Of a DNA stretch of 64,000 nt, positions 1,041 through 47,669 are shown piece by piece; the first letter of the stretch is position 1, and every line of letters starts with the position of its first letter. Source of the stretch: Eledone cirrhosa (lineage: Eukaryota); contig OZ024740.1 of assembly GCA_964016885.1 (NCBI GenBank), forward strand, positions 107,756,001 to 107,820,000. Reading direction: 5' to 3'. The notes under the pieces are model-generated. The model searched no databases. It had not been told where the DNA came from and saw only the letters and a list, made by a program, of their open reading frames with translations. The position numbers and the translations under genes were made by a program.

Positions 1041-1262
1041 ATATATATATATATATATATATATATATATATATATATATATTCATTAGTTAAGCAAAAC
1101 AAGACCACAAATTTCACAAGGAAGACATTATTAAAAGATTGTCAACATATTTTAGTTTGATGTAAAGAATGTAGAGAATAATAATATTAATAATAATAAT
1201 GTATATATATATATGTATATATATATGTATATATATATATTATATATATATATGTATATGTA

Positions 1263-1480
1263 TCATCATCATCGTTTAACGTCCATCTTCTACGCTAGCA
1301 TGGGTTAGACGGGAGTTGTGCCACTTGAGGCAAGGTTGGTCAGGTGACCGTGTCTCGCTCATATAGGACTATCTGTCAGGCTTTCTACGGCTAGATGCCC
1401 TTGCTAACACCAACCACATTTACAGTGTTGACCTGGGAACTTTTTACCGTGTTACCTACACGTCCACATTACAGCGTGGA
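1263..1480 (-). mobile_element. RTE LINE 3' UTR fragment with (GAT)n tail
   Basis: Diverged match to the RTE-B 3' UTR; ends GGACGTTAAACGATGATGATG on the minus strand. Confidence 0.8.
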
Positions 1481-1489
1481 TATATGTAT

Positions 1490-3990
1490 ATATTCTGCGA
1501 CGCCAATGACATGTCGATATGTAACACAAACTTCAAAAAACCCGACAACCACCTGATCACCTATAGATCAGGGGAGCATTCTAGTCAGATAGATTTTATC
1601 CTCATCAGAGGACGTGATAGATGGACGGTCGTAAACACAAAAGCCTTCCCTAGTGAGGAATGTACCTCCCAACATAGCTTAGTTGTCAGCGACCTCACAG
1701 TCAGAACTAGACGAACCTGGAAACAGAGGCCAACCTGGAGAAGAAAGATCTGGAGGCTGAAAGACCCCTCAGCCAGTAACAGATTTAAAGATATTTTACT
1801 CAACGCCTACGACAGTAAAGAAGAACAAATAGAGACATTCAATGTAGAAGAGCACTTACTAGAGGCGACAGATGAGGTCTGTGGCTGGAGTAAGACCACA
1901 AGCAGGAGGAGAGTGACTTGGTGGTGGAACAATAAGGTAGATGAGGCAGTTAAGGCCAAGAGAGAAGCATGGAAAGAATGGAAGAACGGGGGGAGCAGGG
2001 TACATTACATAGAGACCAAGAGGGAAGCTAGGCGACAAGTATACTTAGCTAGGAGGGAAGCAGAGGATAGAAAATTCAAGCATGTTTTGCAACGTGAGGA
2101 CCAGAAACAGGAGGTGTTCAAGATTGCGAGGCAGTGTGTCAGAGAAAATTGTGATGTCATTGGAGAGAAGTGTATCCAGAATGATAAAGGTGAGCTTGCC
2201 CTCACAAGTGCTGAGAAGAAAGATGCGTGGAAGAGTCATTATGATAGATTACTAAATGAGGAGAATGCATGGGAAGAAGAGACCCTACCCCAAGTAGACC
2301 CTATAGAGTGGCCAGCAGTACAATTCAGCAGCAGCGTAGTAAGTAAGGCAATCAAAGATATGAAGATGGGGAAGGCAACCGGTCCATCGGGTATAGCTGC
2401 CGAGATGCTGAAGGCATCTGGATCTGTAGGTCACACTATAACCACACGTATTGTTAACCAGGTAATACTAGAAGGTGTCATACCAAAAGATTGGTGCAGT
2501 AGCATCATTGTCAACTGCTACAAAGGTAAAGGTGATGCACTCGATAGAGGAAACTATAGAGGTATAAAGCTGATGGACCAGGTCATGAAAGTAACAGAAA
2601 GAGTTATAGCACAGTTGATTAGGGACCGGGTGAAACTAGATGAGATGCAATTTGGGTTTGTACCAGGAAGAGGCACCACTGATGCCCTCTTCCTTGTGAG
2701 GCAGTTACAGGAAAAGTACCTAGCTAAAAGTAAGCCACTCTACCTGGCATTCGTCGATCTCGAGAAAGCCTTTGACAGAGTTCCACGCGCTGTAATCTGG
2801 TGGGCTCTTAGAAAACTAGGAGTAGATGAATGGCTTGTGAAAGCTGTACAAGCCATGTATAGGGGAGCAGTCAGCAAAGTTAGGATTAGCAATGAGTATA
2901 GCGAGGAATTTAGCGTACAGGTTGGGGTCCACCAGGGCTCTGTTCTTAGCCCTCTCCTGTTCATCATAGTCCTGCAGGCAATAACGGAGGAGTTTAAGAC
3001 CGGATGCCCATGGGAACTCCTGTATGCTGATGACCTCGCACTTATAGCTGAATCTATGGTAGAACTAGAGAAGAAATTCCAAACTTGGAAGCAGGGACTA
3101 GAAAGAAAGGGTCTCAAAGTCAACATGACAAAGACTAAGGTCCTTGTAAGTAGACGAGAAAACAGAACCCAGATCCCCTCAGGGAAATGGCCTTGCTCAG
3201 TATGTAGGAAAGGTGTAGGTAGGAACTCCATTCTCTGTCCCAAATGCAAACAATGGGTACACAAGAGAGGTAGCGGGATCTCAGGAAGCTTAATTAAGAA
3301 TGTAGGCTTCACATGCAGCAGCTGTACTGGGACAGCAAGCAGCAAACAGCCACAGGAAACAAGTACCACCAATCTCTGGGAGGGCTCTGTAGAGACAGTA
3401 GACAGCTTCTGCTACCTAGGTGACCGAATTAGCAGCGAAGGTGGGTGTTCAGAAAGTACAATAACTAGGGTAAGAACGGGATGGAAGAAGTTCAGGGAAC
3501 TACTACCACTGCTAGCTGCAAAAGGCTTCTCCGTCAGAATGAAAGGCAGACTGTATGATGCGTGTATCCGAACAGCAATGTTACATGGTAGTGAGACCTG
3601 GGCGCTGAAGGTGGAAGACTTACTAGATTAGAGAGAAATGAAGCCTGCATGCTCCGATGGATGTGTAATAGTAATATACGCGAACGACAAAGCATAAATG
3701 AATTGAGATACTGAGCATAAGAGGAATCAAATGCTGTGTGCAGGAGAGGCGGTTGCGTTGGTATGGACATGTGATGCGTATGAAGGATGTCAGCTGCATA
3801 AAAAGGTGCAGAGCACTAGAAGTCGATGGAAAGCGCGGAGTGGGGAGACCCAAGACGACCTGGGATGAGGTGATAAAAACCGACCATACCCAATTACACC
3901 TCTCAAAGGCGATGACACACGACCGTGACCTCTACGTCACACAGTAATACAGAGTACCCGACCTTCCATGGGTACAAGCTGAAGCACATA
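1490..3990 (+). pseudogene. RTE-A APE-RT polyprotein, disrupted
   Basis: Frameshift at ~3620 and small deletions. The PHD Cys in HKRC is mutated to HKRG. The annotated ATG at 1484 comes from the TA tract. Confidence 0.9.
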
Positions 3991-4285
3991 GACAATATGC
4001 CCCCACACCCTTCCACTGCAAGGCGGTTGTGGCGGTGCCACCGCAAAAAAGCACCCAGCCCACACTGTTAAGTGGACGTGTAGGCGCCACGAAAAAGCAC
4101 CCAGCACTCACTGTAAATGAGGTTGGTGTTAGGAAGGGCATCCAGCTGTAGAAATCAAGCCAAATTAGTTCCTGTATGAGCAAGGCATGGTCAGCCGACC
4201 AGACACTGCCCACAACAGGACAACCCATATAACCCATGCTAGCGTGGAAGAATGGACGTAAAACGGTGATGTTGATGATGATGAT
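1490..4285 (+). mobile_element. RTE-clade LINE family A, 5'-truncated and frameshifted
   Basis: ORF 1484-3631 has the APE C-terminus (SQIDFIL, SQH), RT motifs ([32 protein letters not shown]) and RRLRWYGHV in the next frame. 3' UTR ends in (GAT)n at 4285. Confidence 0.95.
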
Positions 4286-44585: not shown

Positions 44586-44622
44586 ATGCTGATGATAGCT
44601 AACAAGCTTGAAACTAGTACAT
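44586..44622 (+). ncRNA. Minimal hammerhead ribozyme with canonical core
   Basis: ATG-CTGATGA-T-AGCT AACA AGCT-T-GAAAC TA GT-A-CAT; palindromic ACTAGT in stem III. Confidence 0.7.
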
Positions 44623-46410
44623 CGTTCCTGTGTCAGTGTTGAACAAAAAGGTGACATGGTTGCCTTAACACCGTGCAGCATAAATTCAGGCTGTTCAGTT
44701 TGTTTACAAACGAACAAAGCGGGCGCTATAATAAGCGTCCGCTAAACTGATGCGTACATATATGTATGTGTACCTGTATGTATATATATATATGTATATA
44801 TATATATATGCATGCTACTGTACGTCTGTATACATATATGTATGTACGTATACATACATACTTACATTTAAGTAAGTGCCGTACTAAGAGTGAGAAATGA
44901 AATTTCATTTTCCTTTTATTACAACTCTCTATATATATATATATATATACATATATATATATATATACATATATATATATACATATATATATATATATAT
45001 ACATATATATATATATATATACATATATATATATATATATATATACATATATATATATATATATACATATATATATATACATATATATATATATATATAT
45101 ACATATATATATATACACATATATATATATACATATATATATATATATATATATATATATATATATATATACATATATATATACATATATATATATATAT
45201 ATACATATATATATATATACATATATATATATATAGATATACTTATATATATATACATATATATATATATATACATATATATATATATATATATACTTAT
45301 ATATATATACATATATATATATATATATACATATATATATACATATATATATATACATATATATATACATATATATATACATATATATATATATATATAT
45401 ATACATACATATATATATATATATACATATATATATATATATATATATATACATATATATATATATATACATATATATATATATATATATACACATTATA
45501 TATATATATATACACATTATATATATATATATATATACACATTATATATATATATATATATATATATATATATATATATATATATACACATATATATATA
45601 TATATATATATATATATATATATATATATATATATATATATATATATACACACATATTATATATATATATACATTTTATATATATATATATAATATATAT
45701 ATATATATATACACATTATATATATATATATATATACACATTATATATATATATATATATACACATTATATATATATATATATATATACACATTATATAT
45801 ATATATATATATATATATATATACACATTATATATATATATATATATACACATTATATATATACATTATATATATATATATACATTATATATATATATAT
45901 ATATATATATATATATATATACATTATATATATATATATATATATATATATATATATATATATACACATATTATATATATATATATACATTTTATATATA
46001 TATATATATACATTTTATATATATATATATATAATATATATATATATATATACACATATATATATATATATATATACACATCATATATATATATATATAC
46101 ACACATTATATATATATATATATATATATATATACACATTATATATATATATATATACACATTATATACATATATATATATACATTATATATATATATAT
46201 ATATACATTATATATATATATATATATATATATATATATATACATTATATATATACATTATATATATATATATATTATATATATATACATTATATATATA
46301 TACATTATATATATATATACATTATATATATATATATACATTTTATATATATATATATATATATATATATATATATATATATATATATATATATATATAT
46401 ATATATATAT

Positions 46411-46665
46411 AACGTTTCCACGAACCAAAGTATCGTCTTTCTGTCTTCCTTCGGTTGCAACGTTTTTTGAAATATCCACTTCTGCGTTTACAGATTGACT
46501 TTGTTAGTTTCAGAAGATCCCGTTAAGGGTGAAAGCAGCGATTCTTTGCTTAAACTTTAATCTGTTATTTTAATAAATATTTGCTCTACGGTTCTTATAT
46601 ATTTGATATATATCTTCCTTATCGAGCCCTCTTTGGATTTTAGTCTTCAATTTTATTATTATTAC
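46411..46665 (+). mobile_element. Solo pLTR of PLE-1, with the CAGAAGA hammerhead variant at 46506-46556
   Basis: Near-identical to ~10597-10845. Confidence 0.9.
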
Positions 46666-47669
46666 TATATATATATACATATATATATATATATATATAT
46701 ATATATATATATATATATATATATATATATATATATATGTGTGTGTGTGTGTGTGTGTGTGTGCACGGGTTGGATGTTTTGTTACAGACCAGGTCAGTAT
46801 TTAATCAGAACTATTGTCCTCTTAAAATGGTTAAGAAAGTATATTTCGCTTGGTTTGTTTCTACAGCTGCACGCCTTTCCTAATACCAACCAGTTTACAG
46901 AGTGTACTCAATGTAATTTACTGTGGCACCAGTATTAAGGAGGTTGTTGTATTCTTGATGGGACTATATAGTCCTCTCAACCCCTTTTTTAGCGTGATTT
47001 CTATAGCTAAATGCTATTCCTAATGCCAACCATTACATAGAGCATACTGGGTGCATTTTATAGTGGCAATAGCATTAGAGTAGTTGTTATCTCTTCACCA
47101 GTCATAACTTTGTCTGCCAACCATATGTATGTATACACACACATACACACATAAAGAGAGGAGCCCATAAATAGATTCAGTAGAAAAGTATAAAATATGG
47201 AAGTAAAATCCTAAAATATTTGACATTCCTCTTCCCAATTTCTTCAAGTAGGATGTTATACAATTGGCTCAAATGACTGCAACAATTTGAACTCTTGGTG
47301 TTGACCTTCAACCTTGATGTTGTTACTGTGACACACCAGCCTTAATGTTACTGTTGTTACAGCTCACACTTATATAGGTTTACTGGGGTTGCATTTCATA
47401 AAGGCTTCTCAGCTGTTTTAATGACAGGGGTCCCAGTCATACCCTAAAAAGCAATAGGAAATAATGCGCCTCATTCAAAAACACAGTGCACCACCTGGTC
47501 TGAGTATTGAACCCACAACATTAGTAGCATAGACTATCTATCTTACCTCCCCTCTAACAATTCCACAACTGTGTCATGATGGCTCGTCCTACATCAGATT
47601 ATATGAAACATTTTCTAAGTGGTGATCGTGTGTGTATCTAAGACGTCATCAACATTCTCATCCACACCT

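Follow-up and report, generated by a model that had tools for sequence, protein, structure and literature searches.

We analysed a 64-kb stretch of contig C1 of the 3.0-Gb Eledone cirrhosa genome (hereafter the window, which contains no N) and found in it a nest in which long interspersed elements (LINEs), Penelope-like elements (PLEs), a Helitron and a short interspersed element (SINE) lie among arrays of the TA microsatellite. TA targeting occurs throughout the genome but depends on the family, the block is a large representative of a class of nests found genome-wide, and a private interruption word supports one founder TA array behind it, from which its arrays would descend.

TA arrays and multi-copy elements are the sole content of about 790-46,738. 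A sequence-only reading of the window had described some two dozen insertions or fragments of unrelated classes, bounded by TA and with no non-repeat DNA between them, and this description stands: 28 element pieces, 31,440 bases in total, are delimited within 1254-46665 (Table 1), 3 further repeat fragments lie to their left at 790-1201, and the junctions that it singled out (GATGAT/ATAT, AAGTT/ATA and CTAG/TA) are found in the sequence. A TA tract of at least 12 bases occurs within 10 bases of 53 of the 56 piece ends, as against 7.8% of random positions, a count with some circularity, since TA blocks were used to cut the pieces, so that the genome-wide counts given below are the real test. 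The named families are three RTE-like LINEs (RTE-A, RTE-B and RTE-C), two CR1-like LINEs (CR1-A and CR1-B), two Hydra-type PLEs (PLE-A and PLE-B), one Helitron and one tRNA-headed SINE, accompanied by several unclassified fragments. TA arrays cover 31% of 1200-46740, compared with a mean of 5.5% (maximum 26%) in 80 spaced 10-kb samples and with 0-5% in 20 neighbouring 10-kb stretches spanning the 200 kb around the window; tracts are of ordinary frequency per kb (32 in 45.5 kb versus 8 per 10 kb), and it is their length that is unusual. The neighbouring stretches (L031-L050) are low in TA, yet 10% of their bases, against 3% in the spaced samples, belong to nest-family copies of at least 93% identity. 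Every nest piece has copies elsewhere in the genome, bar the 89-base 5' end of the Helitron, for which no other copy was seen among the loci examined. Best matches elsewhere share 85-99.5% identity, so that the block must have accumulated over time, and copies of one family within the nest are mostly 94-99% alike, about equal to copies elsewhere, with lower values over short or duplicated stretches. Since the repeats at 790-936, 961-1038 and 1083-1201 are 91%, 97% and 98-100% identical to other copies, the left edge of the nest lies near 790 and not at 1200, where it had first been placed; the right edge lies at 46,738. The flanks are older, as had been claimed, at 1-790 and 46764-49400 (best matches of only 72-85%), but young copies reappear from about 49.8 kb onward.

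The growth of the block from one microsatellite, also proposed in that reading, is supported by a word common to its arrays from 10.8 to 46.4 kb. The rare interruption TAATGTA, counted on either strand, is present in at least 2 copies in 7 of the 17 nest arrays of at least 100 bases, at 10,848-46,411. None of 113 sampled arrays reaches that number, nor does any of 113 arrays taken from CR1, Helitron and PLE loci. As the word was chosen post hoc, the test was made on any rare word common to 17 drawn arrays, and over 20,000 draws such a word was common to at most 4 of them. TAATGTA flanks several nest elements on both sides; it also occurs at 1197, at the cut in repeat V, at most a hint that the marker extends to the left edge. 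Two 585-base CR1-A pieces (37346-37929 and 43178-43762) have both breakpoints in common and no common derived variant, and are thus likely to be independent insertions guided by one target word. The second of these pieces and the long copy (17641-18216) share one variant that is seen in 0 of 29 other copies, pointing to a common source or local conversion. Block duplication within the nest was considered and rejected: self-comparison revealed no duplicated multi-element block, and the nest copies are about as alike as copies elsewhere.

Nineteen 20-kb stretches centred on CR1-A copies (the first ten being the first matches listed, the other nine chosen later, seven of them after their short loci had been seen) have a mean of 24% TA, and five exceed the 31% of the window; the first ten are not lower in TA than the later nine. 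Beyond the adjacent arrays, TA cover near CR1-A is 0.204, compared with 0.098 at base-weighted TA sites (0/5,000). Word sharing was assessed in 18 CR1-A-centred stretches with 138 arrays, leaving out one tandem triplication and one CR1-B locus. There, 33 pairs of arrays have a rare word in common, where 5,000 permutations gave 4.1 such pairs on average and never more than 16, so that the prediction that other nests have words of their own held; in 5 of the 18 stretches one word is found in at least 3 arrays. A second way of growth is shown by another nest, in which a 2.4-kb unit of three elements plus TA arrays is repeated three times in tandem (L255-L256; G000:C12:28155390-28175389). In one further locus (L272), at least 11 arrays from about 3.7 kb onward contain one and the same 20-base word set within TA, a minisatellite arising inside a TA array.

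Copies were counted genome-wide with TA-free queries (40 best matches per search, 30 taken, the window's own copy dropped; an internal query for CR1-A), and RTE-B and the SINE were counted in 100 10-kb stretches, 80 spaced and 20 neighbouring. Among the matches listed, the end lies at a TA tract in 29/29 copies of CR1-A, 28/29 of CR1-B, 26/29 of the Helitron and 23/29 of PLE-B, where six copies miss, five of them at internal tandem junctions (23/24 without those five). The two ends of PLE-A adjoin TA in 11/13 and 12/15 cases, repeats X and W in 15/16 and 10/10, and the PLE-A end is followed by TA in 71-75 contig records in each of three runs of one sample. In the comparison of termini with TA coverage that the sequence-only reading had suggested, these strict families stand at 23/29 to 29/29 against a background of 5.9% in 0.8 Mb of evenly spaced samples. 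Other families are loose: RTE-B copies end at TA in 8/18 cases, RTE-A in 5/13 and RTE-C in 0/10, and SINE ends do so in 9/24 and 9/21. The counts support convergent targeting by the CR1-like, Penelope-like and Helitron families; such targeting is weak in RTE-A, RTE-B and the SINE, and RTE-C shows none. The claim that all classes land in TA was too strong for the RTE and SINE families (0/10 to 8/18).

Young RTE and SINE copies persist outside TA, so that selection alone would not explain the strict families. This also speaks for tolerance of non-TA sites, and we find it very improbable that neither targeting nor feedback is at work, the elements merely surviving in TA because they are harmless there, or that the block is a mis-join of TA-ended contigs. 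TA makes up 5.5% of the genome as sampled, 5 of the 19 CR1-A-centred stretches contain 200-base gaps, and contigs from the three runs do not bridge TA arrays, all of which would suit such an account. However, the window itself is free of N, the private word is confined to the nest and stands on both sides of several elements, and TA follows the PLE-A end in dozens of contig records of every run.

The length of the arrays differs among families. The 3' arrays of CR1-A have a median of 526 bases over 29 copies, several of them cut by the locus edge, and in 25 scored copies the median is 534, versus 73 expected under base-proportional targeting (0/1,500 simulations). The 3' medians of CR1-B and the Helitron are 178 and 26. 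In comparison with the expectation of 52, Helitron and PLE-B tracts have medians of 20 and 27 (p 0.0007 and 0.07). At 5' truncations the medians are 290 for CR1-A and 444 for CR1-B, and 48, 46 and 44 for RTE-A, RTE-B and PLE-B. It is conceivable, though we regard it as rather unlikely, that CR1-like elements build the long arrays themselves, a reverse transcriptase or an end-joining polymerase re-copying the target during insertion and adding hundreds of bases. No more probable is the fuller version, in which the interrupted TA that each CR1-like insertion copies from its target amounts to hundreds to thousands of bases and so seeds lineage-marked nests that absorb all other TA-seeking classes. 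In this way one could account for the finding that CR1 copies alone have long arrays on both sides (5' medians of 290 and 444 versus 44-48), for the repetition of one word on both sides of CR1 copies, for the 110-base array at locus L134, which separates two copies, in inverted orientation, of the 5' end of one element, and for the recurrence together with TA of the 5' end of an RTE-B piece at 27114-27460. A precedent would be the flank-templated extra 5' nucleotides reported for zebrafish ZfL2-2, also named CR1-2_DR (PMC4245944). On the other hand, words derived from the element recur at only 3/63 5' junctions (controls 1/189), which shows that some growth takes place at or after insertion, but not as a rule. 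Moreover, no 5' bias in array length was found, the 5' array being the longer one in only 15/28 copies (counted by eye), just 1 of 31 sampled arrays of at least 250 bases adjoins a CR1-A or CR1-B end, and arrays near CR1-A that are not adjacent to it are long too.

Shared cruciform-induced nicks had been offered as a common route, by which all classes would use host-made nicks or breaks at TA cruciforms without targeting of their own. CR1-A does prefer long arrays beyond length proportion, the nest does contain fold-back junctions and a few tail-less fragments, and priming at host nicks would keep tails intact too, so that CR1 may still have used this route. For human cells, the burden of breaks has been found to correlate with the length of TA repeats, and cleavage of cruciforms followed by repair with DNA polymerase theta (Pol-theta) leads to templated duplications (PMC13645644). 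Nevertheless, such a common route appears improbable. Stringency ranges from 0/10 to 29/29 across families of one genome, and Helitron and Penelope-like copies sit in short tracts, those of the Helitron shorter than the base-proportional expectation and those of PLE-B with the same tendency. Tails are intact and endonuclease motifs are present, and interrupted arrays are predicted to fold less stably than pure TA (-21 to -25 versus -33 kcal/mol per 103 bases). Frequent loss of the 3' tail, by which endonuclease-independent insertion would be recognised, was not observed: the 3' end is intact in all 29 CR1-A copies found with the internal query. One RTE-B copy in the nest is without a 3' tail.

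We thus favour, as fairly probable, a founder array that insertions broke up and that grew longer mostly through host processes, CR1 being drawn to the long arrays. Each family would have entered TA by its own usual route, the LINEs and PLEs by tail-primed reverse transcription with a TA or AT overlap of tail and target, and the Helitron by insertion between A and T (A^T); the intact tails, the overlaps, the Helitron junction and the intact endonuclease motifs all fit this. Array would be left on both sides of each insertion, both halves inheriting the interruption words of the founder. The pieces would then have lengthened as the TA run was re-copied in numerous short rounds, now and then with a fold-back that flips the strand, and host slippage or break repair would be the lengthening agent. 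The arrays of the window have mostly one strand polarity, form domains each with one dominant word and contain no long exact higher-order repeat (the longest has 6 units), which suggests many short re-copying rounds plus rare fold-back, or perhaps later slippage of the TA run. Finally, the association of CR1-like families with long arrays may reflect a preference that closes a feedback loop. The self-amplifying safe haven of the sequence-only reading is plausible with such a preference, the direction of the feedback being what we infer. The founder array, array building by CR1 and shared nicks can also coexist.

Several points weigh against the founder reading and its feedback. The excess of long arrays at CR1-B is modest (p 0.013 for the median and 0.066 for arrays of at least 300 bases), the background was drawn from 0.8 Mb of evenly spaced samples, and TA cover near CR1-A shows no increase in the 800 bases beyond the adjacent array (p 0.5-0.9). 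TAATGTA is missing from the arrays at 1202-5498 and 12852-27794, so that a single origin is bracketed for 10.8-46.4 kb and not shown array by array. A word might also spread by local copying from one array to its neighbour, and no empty allele was found in the contigs of the three runs of one sample, the only runs in which the right flank was detected, which do not bridge TA arrays.

The ingredients of this system are largely known. Hydra and Naiad PLEs insert in (TA)n (Craig et al., 2021; PMC8557442); Hydra-clade PLEs resemble PLE-A in RWR, DKT, the CxCX5C linker, the C-terminal GIY-YIG endonuclease, inverted truncated ends and TA targets, and PLE-B in linker and endonuclease. Unlike in those systems, as described in the available text, the target here is common to CR1-like, RTE, SINE and Helitron families, and nests form. 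The plant DNA transposons MuTAnT, TAFT and Micron also target TA microsatellites convergently, and the idea of a 'safe haven' was stated for them (PMC4486113). They share with the present families a TA targeting of independent origin in unrelated families, but use short pure tracts (mean 11.7 repeats), and the accessible part of that paper reports no kilobase interrupted arrays or multi-class nests. Most target-specific families belong to the early-branched, Tx1 and R1 groups (PMC4640811). The Tx1 and R1 LINEs, which have an apurinic/apyrimidinic endonuclease (APE), and microsatellite-specific elements with a restriction-like endonuclease show near-absolute, tail-primed insertion into one repeat type, as here; unlike them, the two strict LINEs of the nest look CR1-group by motif and favour very long arrays. 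Cleavage of TA cruciforms with Pol-theta microhomology-mediated end joining is a host route that might lengthen and invert TA arrays, but this TA fragility concerns human cancer cells and, in the portion cited, has no tie to element insertion (PMC13645644). Hotspots in Octopus vulgaris are dense windows with recently active RTE, CR1, Penelope and Helitron copies (PMC13282606); those windows were singled out by their density per 100 kb, and the text at hand proposes neither a target mechanism nor one based on microsatellites. By title and abstract opening, no paper was found on TA-specific CR1-like LINEs or word-marked nests, and Repbase or supplements may hold such families. What is new is that CR1-like elements target TA strictly and favour long arrays, and that barcoded nests occur across the genome. 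With two APE LINEs of the CR1-like kind that go almost exclusively to (TA)n, strict targeting would reach beyond the Tx1 and R1 clades; judging by their motifs, the two endonucleases seem sufficiently intact for an assay. The private words serve as natural barcodes that make the descent of a nest readable from a single genome, and they offer a way to test if target feedback or relaxed selection gives rise to transposon hotspots. Such feedback might account for TA-rich hotspots, for gaps in assemblies and for some of the growth of the genome in this lineage.

Regarding family identities, Pfam RVT_1 and Exo_endo_phos_2 were matched in CR1-A and CR1-B, short tandem-repeat tails are present, and no C-terminal CCHC knuckle was seen in the translations. 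We take APE with reverse transcriptase (RT), the lack of such a knuckle and a short tandem-repeat tail to be CR1-group features, and by motif both families look like CR1-group LINEs. Homologues bore uninformative names; CR1-A is 46% identical to CR1-B and 31% to RTE-B. The latter has an open reading frame (ORF) of 958 amino acids with APE, RT and PHD, and the RTE 3' region is common to the SINE; RTE is presumably the proper clade name for RTE-A and RTE-B. In both, a PHD-like finger lies between RT and the C-terminus (38564-41440; 1367-3631). The closest named relative of one RT, at 61%, is from Argonauta hians, in keeping with a cephalopod host. PLE-A and PLE-B would be Hydra-clade PLEs by linker and endonuclease motifs: both have a C-terminal GIY-YIG, with CxCX5C linkers CNCRNRADC and CNCVQPGMC, IVY...YIG/YVG, CDLC and CKLC, as well as CKH and CNH, and no cysteine pair within the GIY-YIG core (alignment inspected by eye). 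PMC8557442 defines the clade by this endonuclease and linker, by CxxC and CxH around E and N, and by the lack of an internal CCHH. For the RWK/DKT motifs, PLE-A has RWR at 10 and DKT at 88, and PLE-B is truncated before both. With one simple pattern, a hammerhead core was found only in 27795-28296 and not in PLE-A or PLE-B, with no Rfam match; no solved structure matched PLE-A, and Pfam recognised neither PLE. The Helitron has a 5' TC, a 3' CTAG with a subterminal hairpin, and insertion between A and T without duplication, T directly following all 29 other copies; the copy at 5487-7245 is without a segment present before 5588 in other copies. A tRNA match in Rfam was obtained on the SINE copy at 61108.

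Table 1. Parts of the nest in window coordinates
Position	Strand	Feature	Remark
790..1201	.	Fragments of repeats X, W, V, TA-separated	True left nest edge
1254..1491	-	RTE-C 3' end, (GAT)n tail	Head-to-head with RTE-A
1492..4288	+	RTE-A, 5'-truncated; RT + PHD-like domain	GAT tail running into TA
4558..5251	-	RTE-B 3' fragment	
5487..7245	+	Helitron-like element, no ORF of at least 120 amino acids	5' TC, 3' hairpin + CTAG, between A and T
7281..10847	-	PLE-A, Hydra-type Penelope-like	ORF 10326-8278, inverted terminal copy
10848..11074	.	TA array	First carrying private word (minus strand)
11075..11447	+	SINE	tRNA-like head, RTE-derived 3' end
11448..12075	.	TA array	6 private-word copies
12076..12851	+	Internal RTE fragment fused without TA to piece with 50-base direct repeat	Latter provisionally labelled PLE-C
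13407..13457	.	51-base piece of repeat X	Arrays either side
13585..15971	+	RTE-B	Truncated at both ends, no 3' tail
15972..17640	.	1,669-base C-interrupted TA array	At CR1-A 3' end
17641..20435	-	CR1-like A: RT + partial APE	TTCAAAG-type tail
20460..20606	.	Repeat Z, two pieces	Flanking 15-base TA run
20901..24481	-	CR1-like B: ORF1 remnant, APE, RT with frameshifts	AAAAGAGT tail
25036..25770	+	RTE-B 3' fragment	
26776..27113	+	SINE, second copy	
27114..27703	+	RTE-B 3' fragment	First 24-35 bases present three times, each after TA array
27795..28296	.	Fold-back Penelope-like terminal piece	Two candidate hammerhead cores
28317..30996	-	PLE-B, Hydra-type	5'-truncated
30997..35865	.	4,869-base compound array	4.3-kb G-type domain, then 550-base domain with 23 private-word copies
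35866..37091	-	RTE-A 3' part	Private-word array on each side
37346..37929	+	CR1-like A 3' fragment	Private word at both junctions
37954..38128	.	Repeat X	With fold-back palindrome
38164..41424	-	RTE-B, longest copy	958-amino-acid ORF: APE, RT, PHD
41681..43045	-	RTE-B 3' part	112-base internal duplication
43178..43762	-	CR1-like A 3' fragment	Breakpoints as in 37346-37929
43763..44584	.	822-base array	27 private-word copies
44585..44929	.	Repeat Y/Y2 (unclassified)	Internal TA run
44930..46411	.	1,482-base compound array	Last carrying private word
46412..46738	.	PLE-A terminal fragment + final TA array	Right nest edge

Two element-element junctions have no clear TA array, namely the head-to-head RTE-C/RTE-A junction (1254-1492) and that between the RTE fragment and PLE-C (12076-12312). 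Near-perfect fold-back palindromes stand at truncation points of CR1-A (20300-20413, at the 5' truncation of the copy at 17641-20435), of the Penelope-like piece (27880-28290) and of repeat X (37954-38050). At locus L158, twin priming with an internal array was considered and rejected, the second piece having its own tail. Outside the nest, the right flank contains an ATC/ATT-rich minisatellite at 47615-48170 with periods of 33, 66 and 150 bases, and two related unclassified repeats follow at 49975-50380 and 51996-52420. The first of these is abundant in other nests, and its fixed end adjoins TA in 25/32 copies, pointing to a further TA-targeting family.

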